From Escherichia coli (GTDB lineage Bacteria; Pseudomonadota; Gammaproteobacteria; Enterobacterales; Enterobacteriaceae): 64,000 bases of DNA. The stretch lies in the NCBI RefSeq assembly GCF_016903815.1, contig NZ_CP069973.1; one strand, given 5' to 3'. Shown here in pieces: positions 30,896 through 51,366 of the stretch (the first letter of the stretch is position 1; every line of letters begins with the position of its first letter). A model generated the notes under the pieces. It saw only the letters and a program-made list of their open reading frames with translations, did no database searches and was not told where the DNA came from. Both the position numbers and the translations under genes were made by a program.

Positions 30896-30977
30896 TTAGA
30901 TGATGGCATTCTCACTCCAACCAGAGCCACCAACTCAGGGCTGGAAAGTAAAAAACCGACGCGAAGTCGGTTTTTTT
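30896..30977 (+). ncRNA. agrA: AgrA small RNA (dinQ-related repeat), approximate ends
   Basis: Promoter-like TTGCAA-17-TAGCAT upstream; body ends in terminator aaaaaaccgacg-cgaa-gtcggttttttt. Near-duplicate of the agrB unit. Confidence 0.6.
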
Positions 30978-31129
30978 ACGTCCGGATTCGGACAAGGCTT
31001 GGTACGGCAGCGACCCGATGAAAGTATATAAATCCTCTTTCACCAACATGTATAGCAAACTGTCCCTTCTCCAGCTGAAGAAATCGCTAATTCTTGCAAT
31101 GTTAGCCACTGGCTAATAGTATTGAACTG

Positions 31130-31211
31130 TTAGATAAGAGCTCTCTCACTCCAGCCAGAGCCACCAACTCAGGGCTGGAAAGTAAAAAACCGACGCAAAG
31201 TCGGTTTTTTT
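31130..31211 (+). ncRNA. agrB: AgrB antisense small RNA (repressor of dinQ), approximate ends
   Basis: TTGCAA-17-TAGTAT promoter at 31094..31122. Body is near-identical to the 30694..30727 segment lying antisense within the dinQ transcript region. Terminator at 31185..31211. Confidence 0.65.
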
Positions 31212-31363
31212 ACGTCCTGATTCAGACCTCCTTTCAAATGAATAGCCAACTCAAAATTCACACCTATTACCTTCCTCTGCACATACACATTCGTTAAACC
31301 ATATATGTTTTTGACTTATCCGCTTCGAAGAGAGACACTACCTGCAACAATCAGGAGCGCAAT

Positions 31364-38385: not shown

Positions 38386-39414
38386 TTATGCAGTAACGCC
38401 TTCCGGTATCAGCGAAGCAATTTGCTTACGCCATTGCGCTTGCTCCTGTTCGCCTTCTGTACGTTGACCATAAAGTTGCGCTATCTGCGTACCATCATGG
38501 GCAAACAATTCCAGACTGGTCACATAACCGTCACTAGCAGGTTTACGGGTTACCCAGGTTTCAGCAATGCTCTCTTCTAATAGATGAAGAGTAAACGTCG
38601 GGTTAAAAATATTCAGCCAACCTTTCATTGGCACCACTTTTTCTACCACGCCAGTGAAAATCTGTACGCAGCCACGGTTGCCAACAAACACCATGATTTC
38701 ATTGCCATCCTGCTGTGCAGATTCAAGAATTTGCGCCAACGCACTGTTGGATACTTTGCAGGCCAAATCGTCTGCCACCAGATTGAACGCCTGTTGGCGC
38801 GTCAGGTTGTGGCGCTTGAGCAACGTAAAAAACTGATGAACGTCGGTCATCGCCCGCCACTCTTGCTCGACCACACTGGCATCGGCTCGCATTTGAACGA
38901 CTGGCGCATCAACGGCTTTTAACTCAAGCGGCGTATTCTCATCAGTGATAAACCGTGCCAGAAGCTCACTCCATGCCGCCATATCGGTATTGTCGGTGGC
39001 ATAAACTTTTAGTAATGCATCGCCCTGATGATCAAAGAACTGAATACTCTGGCGTTCGCCACGAGTCGTATTTTCTTTAATGTGAAAAACACTGGCCCAT
39101 TGATTGAGAAACAGACGCAAATCCAGCGCGCGTGGATTGAGGATCAATCCGGCATGTCCGTTCAAATGCTGGTTTGTGAACGCACCAACTTGCTCATGGA
39201 CTGCATATTCATTACGGCAAATACATTTGGTCTCGCCAACACTTTCGAGCGCCGCCAGAATTTCACGGATATCGCCGCGCATCCGCCACGCATCGTGCGT
39301 GACGCGTGCAAATGCCAGTTCTGCTTCGCTAATATTCATTAAACCTGCGATGTCACGCGCGTACTTTCCGGGATTTTGTTCTTTTAACTCAAGCCAGCGT
39401 GTGTAGTGGTTCAT
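38386..39414 (-). CDS. chuS: Haem utilisation / haem-degrading protein ChuS (HemS/ShuS family)
   Basis: 342-aa ORF directly downstream of chuA on the same strand. Confidence 0.9.
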   Translation of the reverse strand: MNHYTRWLELKEQNPGKYARDIAGLMNISEAELAFARVTHDAWRMRGDIREILAALESVGETKCICRNEYAVHEQVGAFTNQHLNGHAGLILNPRALDLRLFLNQWASVFHIKENTTRGERQSIQFFDHQGDALLKVYATDNTDMAAWSELLARFITDENTPLELKAVDAPVVQMRADASVVEQEWRAMTDVHQFFTLLKRHNLTRQQAFNLVADDLACKVSNSALAQILESAQQDGNEIMVFVGNRGCVQIFTGVVEKVVPMKGWLNIFNPTFTLHLLEESIAETWVTRKPASDGYVTSLELFAHDGTQIAQLYGQRTEGEQEQAQWRKQIASLIPEGVTA

Positions 39415-39462: not shown

Positions 39463-41445
39463 TTACCATTGATAACTCACGAAAATTTTTCCATTACGAC
39501 CATCCTGTGGGATGCCTTGTGGCGACCAGTACTCTTTGTCGAAAGCGTTACCCAACACCAAAGTAGTGGTCATACCTTTGAGCGCCTGTTGTCCTTGATA
39601 ACTGACGTAGAAATCATTCACGCCATAGCCTGGTTGTTTGCTGTAACTGCTGCTGATATGTGTTGAGCGATCGGCAAACGTACCAACCCACCCAACAGAG
39701 AAGCCACTGTGAGCGATCGGAATATTCAGGGTACTGGTAACGGTATCCGGGTTAATGCTGGAGATATATTCCCCAGTATCGGTGTCTTTGCCGCGGGTAC
39801 GGTTATAGGCCACATCAAGGCTAAACAGATCAGTGGTATATTTCGTCATTACATCCCAGCCCCAGATTTTGGCGTTCGGGACGTTATACGACATAGTTGT
39901 CGCCGCCGCGAAATCGACGGTCGTGGAGATGTAATCCTTCGCTTTGGTATCAAAGTAGCTGGCTTTAAATTCCAGGGTATCATTGGACAACATCAGGTCA
40001 TCAAAACGCAGCCCAAAACCGTACTCCTGAGTTTCGTTAGTTTCCGGACGTAAGTTCGGGTTTGGCACCCAATAGTTGGTATAGAAGCGACCAATCGAGA
40101 AGTGCTTAGAATCGTTATACATTTCGCCCATCGTCGGGGCGCGGAATGCCTGGGCATATGAGCCAAATAACATCAGCCAGTTAGTCGGATTGATAGTCAT
40201 CCCCGCACGAGATGACCATTTGTCGGCATCAACATCTTTGTAACCGTCACTGCTACCGCGATAACTGTCATAGCGGGTTCCGCCAAGCAGGGTAATCGGC
40301 AGATCGCGTAAGGTGATCTCATCCTGTAGCCAGCCGGAGCTAAAATCGATTTTTGCTTGCGGGAAGCCCGTCGTCGCGCCGCCCGGATGTTGTTCCTGAC
40401 GATAATACTCACCGCCATATGTCAGTAAGTGAGAAGCGAAACTGTCGGCAAAGAGAGTGGAACGGTTCTCCAGCCTGGCTCCTTTTGTTATCTGTTCACG
40501 ATACTCGCCGGAACTCCCCGTGTTTTGCGCATTAATACGGACTTCCGACCAGTAAATTTTTGCATCTGCATTTAACCAGTCGTTGCCCTGCGGGGCGAGT
40601 TTATAAGAAAGCTGCGCATCGCGTTGAATTGTTGAACGATCAACCATCGGGTTGCTGCTATCAGAAGCCTCAACAGTCTGCGGATTTTTTGGTTCACGCG
40701 CGTCGTTGTTGTAGTAACGCACTAAACCGCTCAGAGACTGGGCTGAATCAATTTGCCAGGTCCCTTTCGCCAGCATGTTATTAATGGACTCGTCATTCGG
40801 CGCGGTTTCACCATTGCTCTGGCGTAAATCACCCCGACCGCGACTGGACCAGGCCACAATACCATCCAGATTTTCAGTTCGCCCAAACGCGCTCGCGCCT
40901 AATCCCAGGCTATGGTCCCCCGTGCCGCCAGTACCAAAGACACGAAAACCACTGCTTTGTCCTTCCTGCAATAAATCTTTTGCATCGACCGTATCGTAGG
41001 AGATCACTCCACCCAGCGCACCACTGCCATACAGTAATGCTGAAGGTCCGCGAACAATCTCAACACGCTTGATCAGCGCCGGATCGAGAAAAGTGCCATT
41101 CAGGTGTCCGGTATCCGTTCCCTGGCGAACACCATCGACAAGAACCAGCACGCCGCGATGATCATAGCCACGCATATTTACATCCTGACCGTTGGTTCGT
41201 CCGGTACCATCAAGAGTAATTCCAGGAACATGACGCAGCAAATCAGTGGCTGAAGTAGCCGTTTGATTTTCAGGAGCGGAAGTGTCGATGACGCTGACCA
41301 TCATAGGCGCTTCGAAGGAACTACGGGCATTCCCCGTTGCCGTAACGGTCATGGTTTCAGTAGCAAAAGCAAACGTTGGCAAGGTGGCAGAAACAGCCAA
41401 AGCCAACAAACTCAAACGCAACGAGGTAAATTGCGGACGTGACAT
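39463..41445 (-). CDS. chuA: TonB-dependent outer membrane haem/haemoglobin receptor ChuA
   Basis: 660 aa; signal peptide, TonB-box-like ETMTVTA, plug and beta-barrel, C-terminal ...VSYQW. Confidence 0.95.
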   Translation of the reverse strand: MSRPQFTSLRLSLLALAVSATLPTFAFATETMTVTATGNARSSFEAPMMVSVIDTSAPENQTATSATDLLRHVPGITLDGTGRTNGQDVNMRGYDHRGVLVLVDGVRQGTDTGHLNGTFLDPALIKRVEIVRGPSALLYGSGALGGVISYDTVDAKDLLQEGQSSGFRVFGTGGTGDHSLGLGASAFGRTENLDGIVAWSSRGRGDLRQSNGETAPNDESINNMLAKGTWQIDSAQSLSGLVRYYNNDAREPKNPQTVEASDSSNPMVDRSTIQRDAQLSYKLAPQGNDWLNADAKIYWSEVRINAQNTGSSGEYREQITKGARLENRSTLFADSFASHLLTYGGEYYRQEQHPGGATTGFPQAKIDFSSGWLQDEITLRDLPITLLGGTRYDSYRGSSDGYKDVDADKWSSRAGMTINPTNWLMLFGSYAQAFRAPTMGEMYNDSKHFSIGRFYTNYWVPNPNLRPETNETQEYGFGLRFDDLMLSNDTLEFKASYFDTKAKDYISTTVDFAAATTMSYNVPNAKIWGWDVMTKYTTDLFSLDVAYNRTRGKDTDTGEYISSINPDTVTSTLNIPIAHSGFSVGWVGTFADRSTHISSSYSKQPGYGVNDFYVSYQGQQALKGMTTTLVLGNAFDKEYWSPQGIPQDGRNGKIFVSYQW

Positions 41446-41450
41446 AGCGA

Positions 41451-41466
41451 TTCTCCATGAGGAAAA
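41451..41466 (-). promoter_or_regulatory. Candidate FourU-type RNA thermometer hairpin masking the chuA Shine-Dalgarno
   Basis: Minus-strand RNA reads UUUUCC-UCAU-GGAGAA immediately 5' of the chuA AUG; UUUUCC can pair with GGAGAA. Confidence 0.4.
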
Positions 41467-41734
41467 TAAAAAATGCTGGCTGCCTGGGTTAATACCGGGG
41501 TGGCTGGCGAAAAATAAATTTATTTAAAATTCAGAGCGATAATATTCGCCGGGTGAGTTTACAGGCGTTTATATCCCATGAAATTGCCTGGTATCTCGGC
41601 AAATACGCAAAAGCACGCCCTCTTTGTCAGGCAAAACGATATGCCCCATCAGGAGTGAAGAGCGCTGTGCGTTATCCCTTGCAAATGCTATGGTTTTGTT
41701 ATCCATATGGTCGTGTTTTGTTAAGCGCGAACGT

Positions 41735-41753
41735 GATAATGAGAATTATTATC
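41735..41753. promoter_or_regulatory. Fur-box-like site in the chuA upstream region
   Basis: GATAATGAGAATTATTATC resembles the Fur consensus GATAATGATAATCATTATC. Confidence 0.5.
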
Positions 41754-42083
41754 GATCAATTTTTTATGATCAAGCTTTTTTTTAACCGCCATTAACACAA
41801 TAAACAGGGGGTTATGAAACTTATCCTGCGCCCTGTAAACCACTTTGTTTTTATGGTTATTCCCCCATGACCTCATTACTAAACTTTGTCGTTAGCAGTG
41901 ATAATTTTCTCTTCGCTTTGCTCTGCAAGCCTCGATATCTGTGGGTTCTCAGCTTTTTCCCGCGCTGAAATTTAGTCGGTAACAAGAACGTTAGCTGACG
42001 AAGCATCTTGATAAAAATCAAAAATAAATACGCTTGTAACGCCTTGCGTATTGAATCGACGGTTGTATTTCATATATAACTCA

Positions 42084-42105
42084 AATGATAATAATGATCA
42101 TTCTC
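42084..42105. promoter_or_regulatory. Fur-box-like site at the chuT operon promoter
   Basis: AATGATAATAATGATCATTCTC, shortly upstream of the chuT start. Confidence 0.55.
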
Positions 42106-42128
42106 AATTTGATAAGAGTTCTCATATT

Positions 42129-43043
42129 ATGCCAAGGATCATCACCAGGCCGTTTCTTTTTTCCCCACTAACGTTATGTATTTCAGCCGTGGCCTCTGCC
42201 GCGAAGACCGCGGTAAAACGAAAAAAAATGTTTACGGCAGTACTGGCTCTTAGCTGGGCTTTTAGCGTAACGGCTGCCGAACGTATCGTGGTCGCAGGAG
42301 GATCGCTGACGGAGCTAATCTACGCGATGGGCGCTGGCGAACGCGTGGTTGGTGTCGATGAAACGACATCTTATCCACCAGAAACCGCCAAACTGCCGCA
42401 TATTGGCTACTGGAAACAACTCAACAGCGAAGGCATTTTGTCACTTCGCCCGGATAGCGTAATTACCTGGCAGGATGCCGGGCCACAAATTGTGCTCGAC
42501 CAACTACGAGCGCAGAAAGTCAACGTCGTTACCCTGCCGCGTGTGCCTGCCACCCTTGAGCAGATGTACGCCAACATTCGCCAACTGGCAAAAACGCTAC
42601 AGGTTCCTGAACAAGGCGAGGCGCTGGTGACACAGATCAACCAACGCCTGGAGCGAGTACAGCAAAACGTGGCGGCCAAAAAAGCCCCGGTTAAAGCCAT
42701 GTTTATTCTCTCCGCAGGCGGAAGTGCGCCACAGGTTGCCGGTAAAGGCAGCGTCGCGGACGCCATTCTTTCGCTTGCCGGAGCAGAAAACGTCGCAACC
42801 CACCAGCAGTACAAAAGCTACAGTGCAGAATCACTGATTGCGGCCAATCCAGAAGTGATTGTCGTAACCTCACAAATGGTCGATGGCGATATTAATCGGC
42901 TACGTTCTATTGCCGGAATTACCCACACTGCCGCATGGAAAAACCAGCGCATTATCACCGTTGATCAAAACCTGATTCTGGGAATGGGTCCGCGTATTGC
43001 TGATGTCGTTGAGTCTTTACACCAGCAGCTTTGGCCGCAATAA
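42129..43043 (+). CDS. chuT: Periplasmic haem-binding protein ChuT (ABC transporter substrate-binding)
   Basis: Start taken at MPRIITRP (42129) just after the Fur-box-like site. An internal Met at 42228 begins a signal-like MFTAVLALSWAFSVTAA; the track start at 42051 is unlikely. Confidence 0.8.
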   Translation: MPRIITRPFLFSPLTLCISAVASAAKTAVKRKKMFTAVLALSWAFSVTAAERIVVAGGSLTELIYAMGAGERVVGVDETTSYPPETAKLPHIGYWKQLNSEGILSLRPDSVITWQDAGPQIVLDQLRAQKVNVVTLPRVPATLEQMYANIRQLAKTLQVPEQGEALVTQINQRLERVQQNVAAKKAPVKAMFILSAGGSAPQVAGKGSVADAILSLAGAENVATHQQYKSYSAESLIAANPEVIVVTSQMVDGDINRLRSIAGITHTAAWKNQRIITVDQNLILGMGPRIADVVESLHQQLWPQ

Positions 43044-51028: not shown

Positions 51029-51366
51029 TCAGGACATAAGCAACTGAAATTGATGGCTGGCATGACGAGGGATGCAGATGCTGATTTCATTACCCCCGGT
51101 GATTACTAAAGGAGAGGCGAAAACGACTTTATTCCCCTGGTATATGTATCCACCAGTAGAACCCTTCGTTGCCCGAATGCTGGCAGGAACTGTTGGCAGA
51201 ACGGCAACATTTTTTTTGTCGTTGACCTCACCATGTCGATCACTATGCCTGTATCCCACCTTACTGGCTGACAACCCCACTATGCCGCTGGTCTGTAAAT
51301 CCCTCATATCTCTCCTCGCGCGCAATTTAAAGAACCGTTATTTCTCAAGAATTTTCAGGGACTAAA

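Follow-up and report, generated by a model that had tools for sequence, protein, structure and literature searches.

The analysed window is a 64,000-nucleotide (nt) stretch of Escherichia coli DNA, in which positions 41446..42128 (683 bp) correspond exactly to the chuA–shuT intergenic region in the RefSeq annotation of an identical record. On the minus strand, chuA (39463..41445; from the open reading frame (ORF) list and DNA match) encodes the 660-residue TonB-dependent haem/haemoglobin receptor ChuA/ShuA, and chuS lies at 38386..39414 (RefSeq annotation of the identical record). On the plus strand, shuT, also called chuT (42129..43043), encodes the periplasmic haem-binding protein; its start at 42129 is that of the identical RefSeq record and the ORF list, and 3′ of it RefSeq annotates, in order, hutW, hutX, chuY, shuU and an ATPase gene. 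Strain 7/2 matches positions 41300..42300 at 100% DNA identity and carries the RefSeq chuA annotation, and on this match and the annotation of the identical record the gene identities given in the original prediction, chuA and chuT, are right. Positions 41300..42300 were found in 2,236 of 5,426 complete E. coli genomes, and in 1229 genomes the whole intergenic region is only 90–95% identical. A 51-codon minus-strand ORF between the two promoters (41721..41876) was rejected as coding, as it is broken by a 1-nt deletion in an O145:H28 strain.

The intergenic region had been predicted to contain two Fur-consensus-like sites. We searched the 64-kb window with the 19-bp consensus GATAATGATAATCATTATC, allowing up to three mismatches. 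The first site is present as predicted at 41735..41753 (Fur box 1, GATAATGAGAATTATTATC), matching 17 of 19 positions with two mismatches. The second, predicted at 42084..42105, is also present, with its core at 42087..42105 (Fur box 2, GATAATAATGATCATTCTC; 16/19, three mismatches on either strand); the predicted range adds 3 nt of a weaker overlapping register (42081..42099, 14/19). These are the only places in the 64 kb with three or fewer mismatches, as compared with a chance expectation of 0.04 from dinucleotide shuffles, and the four strand-matches to the consensus were reached by 0 of 100 such shuffles. The next best Fur-like sites anywhere in the window, in the full ranking, reach only 14/19.

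Fur box 1, the putative chuA operator, covers a −10-like hexamer and the probable transcription start. A consensus scan identified a promoter-like pair on the minus strand (−35 TTGATC, 17-nt spacer, −10 AATAAT; 41773..41745) that is overlapped by the box, and its position fits the published start site from another strain: the 291-nt chuA leader mapped by dRNA-seq in enterohaemorrhagic E. coli (EHEC) (PMC9002310) would place the start here at about 41736, within Fur box 1. The box is 100% conserved among four E. coli lineages. In most of 78 orthologous loci a Fur box lies at −291 to −362 from the ATG, and in six loci with insertions it lies further upstream. The recurrence of a Fur box at about −300 in most ChuA-orthologue loci indicates that site 1 is conserved in position as well as in sequence.

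Fur box 2 is, judged by its sequence, the published shuT operator, spanning +1 to +19 of the shuT transcript. PMC5458455 describes a shuT Fur site at +1 to +19 with three differences from the consensus and a transcript that begins 42 nt 5′ of the start codon; it reports that this site is sufficient for Fur-dependent iron regulation, using reporters and a fur mutant, and that it was examined by EMSA, in a passage in which Fur shifted the non-specific control fragment too. Fur- and iron-dependent repression of shuA/chuA is likewise cited in PMC5458455 and PMC9002310. Fur box 2 lies in transcribed DNA, within the shuT leader, and not over a promoter, which corrects an earlier note on this DNA. 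With the start sites taken from other strains, both Fur sites are positioned to block initiation or early elongation.

Immediately 5′ of chuA, the mRNA (41474..41443, minus strand) reads 5′-AUUUUUUAUUUUCCUCAUGGAGAAUCGCUAUG-3′ and folds into a hairpin with a 7-base pair (bp) stem, in which AUUUUCC (41467..41461) and GGAGAAU (41456..41450) are joined by a UCAU loop (41460..41457). The 3′ arm holds the Shine–Dalgarno (SD) sequence, and the stem is followed by CGCU and then AUG (41445..41443), which thus begins 4 nt past the stem. In both the minimum free energy (MFE) and centroid structures, the four uridines pair with A, A, G and A of the SD, as the original prediction had proposed. Its assignment of this element to the FourU thermometer of the Shigella shuA leader also holds: the 32 nt score 60.1 bits against Rfam RF02597 (shuA_thermo; gathering score 58), align over model positions 1–32 of 32, are identical to the consensus and are the same as the experimentally tested sequence. 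A permissive Rfam scan returned no FourU family besides RF02597. Its sub-threshold hits, to hammerhead HH9 (42182..42257; 19.7 bits as compared with 52), a plant-virus pseudoknot and a group II intron fragment, were discarded as chance.

The calculated free energy of the hairpin is −8.4 kcal/mol at 25 °C and −6.1 kcal/mol at 37 °C. By itself this stability is moderately unusual at most (z = −2.83; 5 of 200 shuffled sequences reach it), and the hairpin stands above chance because it is consensus-identical to RF02597 and nearly invariant across chuA-positive E. coli, the 80 nt at −65 to +15 being at least 99% identical in 2189 of 2235 chuA-positive complete genomes. In the full leader, the hairpin accounts for a probability of about 0.97 of the ensemble. 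Folding at 25 °C versus 37 °C had been suggested as a check. The stem is weaker at 37 °C, but no switch appears: the hairpin is predicted to be folded throughout 20–45 °C, and at each of 25, 37 and 42 °C the predicted pairing of the SD exceeds 99% (its unpaired probability rises only from about 0.002 at 25 °C to about 0.009 at 37 °C). Because the predicted SD pairing hardly changes, folding cannot decide on thermosensing, and the predicted tie between chuA translation and host temperature is instead backed by published reporter and mutation data on the identical sequence. In reporters with the S. dysenteriae shuA or the uropathogenic E. coli (UPEC) chuA leader, this sequence makes translation respond to 25 versus 37 °C, and a shift from 25 to 37 °C raises the reporter output of both leaders (PMC3660397). 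The U-19C mutation stabilized the hairpin and lowered output at 37 °C, the U-19A mutation destabilized it and raised output at 25 °C (PMC3660397), and in EHEC chuA the U273A mutation increased expression 2.6-fold at 25 °C (PMC9002310).

A second thermometer, absent from the earlier note, lies on the other side of the region. The 42-nt shuT leader together with the AUG (42087..42131, plus strand; 45 nt) folds into one hairpin of 14 pairs, exactly two of them G–C, with internal loops and a 10-nt terminal loop, in which the ribosome-binding site AAGAG is paired with U15, U16, C17 and U18. Its free energy is −9.0 kcal/mol at 25 °C and −5.8 kcal/mol at 37 °C. In Wei et al. 2017 (PMC5458455), the 42-nt shuT leader is described as a non-FourU, hsp17-like RNA thermometer, with U15 and U16 mutated. 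The leader in the window agrees with that text on the 42-nt length, the Fur site, the single hairpin, the two G–C pairs and U15/U16 facing the ribosome-binding site. Its fold also shows the four published hsp17-like features: a short 5′UTR forming one hairpin with an internal loop, a large terminal loop, few G–C pairs and a fully paired SD. The window strain has A at shuT +7, as compared with C in three other E. coli lineages, and the predicted stability is unchanged. The same 19 nt therefore have two roles, forming a Fur operator at the DNA level and the 5′ arm of a thermometer once transcribed.

Taken together, these features identify the 683-bp stretch, with very high confidence, as the divergent control region of the E. 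coli/Shigella haem-uptake locus, working in layers. In this mechanism, iron-bound Fur would sit on the 19-bp operator over the −10 element and start of the chuA promoter, and on the second operator at +1..+19 of the shuT transcript, blocking transcription in both directions. When iron is scarce, chuAS would be transcribed with a 291-nt leader, the last 32 nt of which would form the 7-bp hairpin that places four uridines on the SD; the weak A–U/G–U stem would be shut at about 25 °C and open enough at 37 °C for ribosome loading, and the 42-nt shuT leader would do the same job with a different hairpin. Sequences, rarity, folds, family membership and conservation were obtained here, and the dependence on Fur and temperature is taken from the cited papers on other strains. 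Further inputs to the chuA leader have been reported: activation by CyaR, which base-pairs immediately 5′ of the hairpin; repression by RyhB and Esr41, which act at the ribosome-binding site; and termination by Rho within the leader, for which +177..+217 is needed (PMC9002310). Layered control by iron (Fur) and temperature (RNA thermometers) would confine haem uptake to the warm, iron-poor host, a textbook-level case. The features in the original prediction and their interpretation are both correct and both already published, with an Rfam family and three primary papers, and the strain of the window has the standard, intact version of the known chuA/shuT control region.

Conservation extends 5′ of the chuA hairpin into a C-rich stretch (41469..41508, minus strand), in which GCCAGCC (41508..41502) and CAGCCAGC (41482..41475) form a motif like the HmuP-responsive element (HPRE). 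The arrangement GCCAGCC-N19-CAGCCAGC, at −63..−30 of chuA, is unique in the window (expected 0.01), and the core of the stretch is invariant in 70 leaders from many genera. In all 70 distinct leaders, GCCAGCCACCC(A/C)GG is followed, after a short gap that varies, by CCCAGGCAGCCAGC, then by a tract rich in U and by AUGGAGAG. The motif resembles the Chromobacterium violaceum chuR HPRE, CCCGCAAGCCAGCCGACAGCCAGCCAGCG, quoted in PMC9131926, and is by sequence a candidate element of this kind; the HemP-family protein ChuP of C. violaceum has been proposed to act post-transcriptionally through such elements (PMC9131926). The motif also overlaps the CyaR pairing site. When a 22-nt sliding duplex of the Rfam-confirmed CyaR was scanned along the 291-nt leader, the best site on all 291 nt was −43..−24 (41488..41469; CCCAGGCAGCCAGCAUUUUU), with a duplex energy of −18.1 kcal/mol, in agreement with the published site about 15 nt upstream of the SD (PMC9002310). 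Unrestricted RNAduplex runs of CyaR against the leader gave meaningless 80-nt duplexes, and the sliding version was used instead.

A scan of genomes with ChuA yielded 80 loci from many enterobacterial genera, and from 78 of them the start codon and leader were extracted. In 74 of the 78 loci, all outside Escherichia, an intact gene for a small protein, hemP, lies between the Fur box and the receptor gene, its product ending in ...IDSKxLLGxEGRVIIEHDGQHYLLRQTxAGKLILTK, and its stop codon lying 69–106 nt before the receptor start in most loci. Three representative ORFs match Pfam hemP (PF10636) at E values of about 1e-17. By contrast, only short ORFs, which differ between lineages, occupy the hemP position in the window and in the four loci from Escherichia, E. 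albertii among them. We detected no hemP-like DNA in the 5,426 complete E. coli genomes and no hemP gene in the window, and the absence of hemP from the shu locus has been noted in the literature (PMC6158557). The RF02597 threshold is passed only in the four Escherichia loci and in 0 of 16 other genera.

Folding of these leaders suggests, in most of them, an extended hairpin that would sequester both SD and AUG, with GGCA/UGCC pairing across the start codon, AGC(G)/(U)GCU, and CUUUUC/GGAGAG. It is compatible with 91.3% of alignment cells, as compared with 46–54% in slid controls, and the proximal FourU pairing with 87.5%. A single two-sided change, from C–G to U–A, is seen in seven sequences, which belong to Escherichia and to at least one further lineage. 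When RNAalifold was run on the alignment of 70 leaders, just the outer 4-bp helix came out, the inner ones being blurred by shifts of register and by indels in the loops. Given this weak covariation and the recovery of the outer helix only, we treat the extended hairpin across genera as a modelled, hypothetical structure. For Escherichia, the mutations back the published proximal stem, since the alternative has position −19 in its loop.

These observations invite another explanation, in which the SD-sequestering structure is chiefly an inherited switch of the hemP–hemR operon and temperature sensing in Escherichia is secondary. In the relatives, the small haem-binding regulator HemP would open the structure through GCCAGCC/CAGCCAGC; in Escherichia, which is without hemP, that role would fall to CyaR, pairing at the same place. 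The intact hemP directly upstream in 74 loci of other genera, the motif and SD region conserved in 70 of 70 leaders, the excess compatibility of the extended hairpin (GGCA/UGCC plus AGCG-CUUUUC/GGAGAG-UGCU) over slid controls with its one compensatory pair, and the location of the best CyaR duplex on the 5′ arm of that hairpin are all consistent with such a switch, as is the proposal that HemP/ChuP acts post-transcriptionally via such elements (PMC9131926). Yersinia enterocolitica hemR1 has a FourU-like hairpin without thermoregulation (PMC6158557). However, the mutations at U-19 and U273, in the proximal stem, alter temperature behaviour and are direct evidence for a thermometer in Escherichia/Shigella, and CyaR activation has been reported to be independent of the FourU hairpin (PMC9002310). 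The covariation is also thin, with most pairs invariant or changed on one side and RNAalifold retaining the outer helix only, and HemP–RNA binding in enterobacteria is itself hypothetical. We therefore consider it unlikely that the inherited switch is the chief role of the structure in Escherichia.

A more local question is which arm holds the SD in vivo: within the extended hairpin, this could be mainly the U6 run located upstream (AUUUUUUAU, 41473..41465), and not the proximal UUUUCC. The MFE fold of a 48–62-nt context at 20–37 °C is the U6 structure, the run occupies the ancestral anti-SD position (CUUUUC in other genera), and the compensatory change, at pair 47–78, supports this register. 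The U6–SD pairing takes 20–35% of the ensemble in a short, 62-nt context; however, longer flanks give the proximal hairpin a probability of about 0.97, and as the U6 structure leaves position −19 in its loop, it would not account for the published stabilizing and destabilizing mutation effects. We regard this pairing as improbable as the main in vivo state, and retain the proximal FourU stem as the operative one. A further reading, in which both the Fur-like sites and the hairpin arose by chance in AT-rich intergenic DNA and are functionless in this strain, can be set aside as extremely improbable. The hairpin z score is modest and an AT-rich region favours Fur-like words, but the Fur matches are expected 0.04 times and seen only here, and Fur box 1 keeps its position from genus to genus. 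The hairpin has the very sequence of an element tested by experiment and is nearly invariant in 2189 of 2235 genomes, and published reporter and mutational data on the identical sequence contradict this reading.

Primary papers call the 291-nt chuA/shuA leader unusually long and its function unknown. The body of the leader (41541..41706, minus strand) occupies the position of hemP in other Enterobacterales, as placed by the comparative loci. It holds a 45-codon ORF (41706..41569, minus strand) that has no hemP match and is not conserved among Escherichia lineages. The Escherichia stretch measures 207 nt as compared with 201–211 nt in the hemP-bearing relatives, keeps the hemP consensus start tATGGATAACA at the same offset and in register, has TAAATAAA where hemP stops, and is flanked on its 3′ side by clearly homologous sequence. 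Within E. coli, no segment diverges faster than the leader body, which this strain shares with a B2-like one at 74.9% identity, as compared with 100% for the promoter and 93.7–100% for the last 95 nt.

Direct searches for hemP remnants in the leader gave little signal. Searching five HemP proteins against it with tblastn yielded only matches at E = 0.009–2, partly out of register; an nhmmer profile built from the final 165 nt of hemP had no match in the leader; and local and global pairwise alignments of the leader body with hemP gave z scores of about 0 relative to dinucleotide shuffles. An nhmmer profile including the hemP 5′ end produced a weak in-register match of 4.9 bits (E = 0.56 for the full 64 kb and 0.0014 for the leader by itself), and no match elsewhere in the window ranked higher. 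On evidence that consists mainly of position, length and conserved flanks, hemP probably decayed in place in the Escherichia lineage; replacement of hemP by unrelated DNA of similar length is the alternative, which we do not prefer.

We tentatively advance a fuller account, for which we judge the odds to be somewhat short of even: the 291-nt leader is hemP decayed in place, and the HemP-answerable stem of its spacer has been re-tuned to temperature and CyaR. Decay would have kept the old promoter and Fur box, ATG GAT AAC, the stop region TAAATAAA and the whole hemP–hemR spacer, including its HPRE-like motif, and randomized the coding middle. The ancestral stem over SD and AUG, once answerable to HemP, would have been re-tuned such that the proximal UUUUCC arm senses temperature, and its 5′ arm would have become the CyaR site. 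If true, this would explain the length of the leader, the conservation of only its last ~95 nt and the 'additional repressive element overcome by CyaR'. Full-text literature searches found no papers linking hemP to the chuA leader. The value of the hemP-slot observation is modest: it offers an evolutionary account of the long leader and a link to the HemP/HPRE system of other proteobacteria.

Comparison with known systems places the layered-control region as follows. The Salmonella agsA and Yersinia lcrF thermometers are the founding FourU class. Like the chuA hairpin, they place four consecutive uridines on the SD in a short, weak stem melting near 37 °C, without sequence homology to it; the chuA element differs in belonging to an iron-uptake receptor gene rather than a heat-shock or virulence regulator, and in ending a 291-nt leader. 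The agsA thermometer was used as the positive control for chuA (PMC3660397). The element of Rfam RF02597 and Kouse et al. 2013 (PMC3660397) has the same 32-nt sequence, structure and position before the chuA AUG, with no detectable difference from that in the window.

The Yersinia-type hemPRSTUV operon offers a comparison at the level of the locus. In the genera fetched, its HemR orthologues are 57–88% identical to ChuA, the Fur box lies at the same distance from the start codon as in chuA, and the loci share the ~95-nt spacer with the GCCAGCC...CAGCCAGC motif and an SD-sequestering stem; hemP is present in these loci, whereas the Escherichia window is without it. A divergent chuT occurs only in the Escherichia loci (92–94% identity to the window ChuT), whereas in the other genera HemT is encoded downstream on the same strand, in hemPRST order, and is only ~33% identical to ChuT. 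The second Fur box and the shuT thermometer are thus specific to the Escherichia/Shigella arrangement, and the chu locus appears to be a mosaic.

Only in the Escherichia loci (L040, L050 and L061 of the ChuA-orthologue loci found in the genome scan, compared with L007–L085) is chuT, at window 42129..43043, divergent from chuA, whereas in other genera the genes are ordered hemP-hemR-hemS-hemT and all run in one direction. The receptors are 57–88% identical, and the HemT proteins of the other genera are only ~33% identical to ChuT. Two haem-uptake modules appear to be combined in the chu locus, which has a mosaic look.

The body of the 291-nt chuA leader (41541..41706, minus strand) sits where other genera carry hemP, which encodes a small haem-binding regulator; an intact hemP (Pfam PF10636) occupies this position in 74 loci of other genera within L007–L085. 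The Escherichia leader body is equal in length to that of the hemP-bearing loci and retains the hemP start ATGGATAAC and stop-region TAAATAAA, with no significant hemP similarity between the two. The Escherichia leader body may be a decayed hemP. The same stretch contains a putative 45-codon open reading frame (MDNKTIAFARDNAQRSS...; 41569..41706, minus strand), which runs from 31 nt into the chuA transcript to +168, just 5′ of the +177..+217 segment reported to be required for Rho termination on the chuA leader (PMC9002310). Among Escherichia lineages, its N-terminal half is alignable and the remainder is frameshifted.

In L041, L044, L045, L053, L072 (Buttiauxella) and L006 (Escherichia sp.), the Fur box lies 420–515 nt 5′ of the receptor start, compared with the usual ~300 nt, a distance that points to insertions within either the leader or the hemP–hemR spacer. 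At L005 (E. coli WP4-S17-ESBL-03, ~2231..3000), the match to the region starts only at window 41716, within the leader, and this boundary adjoins an IS26 transposase gene. Both chuA and chuS are missing there, indicating that this strain has lost the receptor and retained chuT onward. The window's other Rfam matches above threshold, to GadY sRNA (56997..57110), two AgrB antisense RNAs (30896..30979 and 31130..31213) and ES205 sRNA (51146..51217), all on the plus strand, are consistent with the chu genes being flanked by dctR/slp and yhiD/hdeB in the acid-fitness island.

The 42-nt leader of shuT/chuT forms one weak hairpin (42087..42131, plus strand) in which the ribosome-binding site is paired, and this predicted fold fits the published hsp17-like shuT RNA thermometer (PMC5458455). 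The same 19 nt therefore double as a Fur operator in DNA and a thermometer arm in RNA. The original prediction did not include this thermometer. Position +7 of the leader is A in the window strain and C in three other E. coli lineages, with predicted stability unchanged. Within 42129..42230 (plus strand), the annotated start gives ShuT a 33-residue N-terminal extension (MPRIITRPFLFSPLTLCISAVASAAKTAVKRKK) followed by the signal-peptide-like MFTAVLALSWAFSVTAA; an in-frame ATG lies at 42228, and alignments with HemT relatives start only at residue 34–52. The published start-site mapping of shuT was based on the upstream ATG (PMC5458455).

Across genera, chuA-type leaders have the predicted potential to adopt an extended hairpin reaching over the AUG as well (candidate at 41443..41488, minus strand; GGCA/UGCC, AGCG/UGCU and CUUUUC/GGAGAG). 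In an alignment of 70 leaders upstream of ChuA orthologues, its pair-compatibility is 91%, with one compensatory change, C-G to U-A. An upstream U6 run in E. coli provides an alternative anti-Shine–Dalgarno, which is the minimum free energy fold in short contexts and occupies only ~2% of the ensemble with the full leader.

Directly 5′ of the FourU hairpin lies GCCAGCC-N19-CAGCCAGC (41475..41508, minus strand), which occurs once in the window (0.01 expected) and is invariant in 70/70 leaders from many genera. The best pairing site for the sRNA CyaR (41469..41488) overlaps this motif, which resembles the HmuP-responsive element given for chuR of C. violaceum (PMC9131926).
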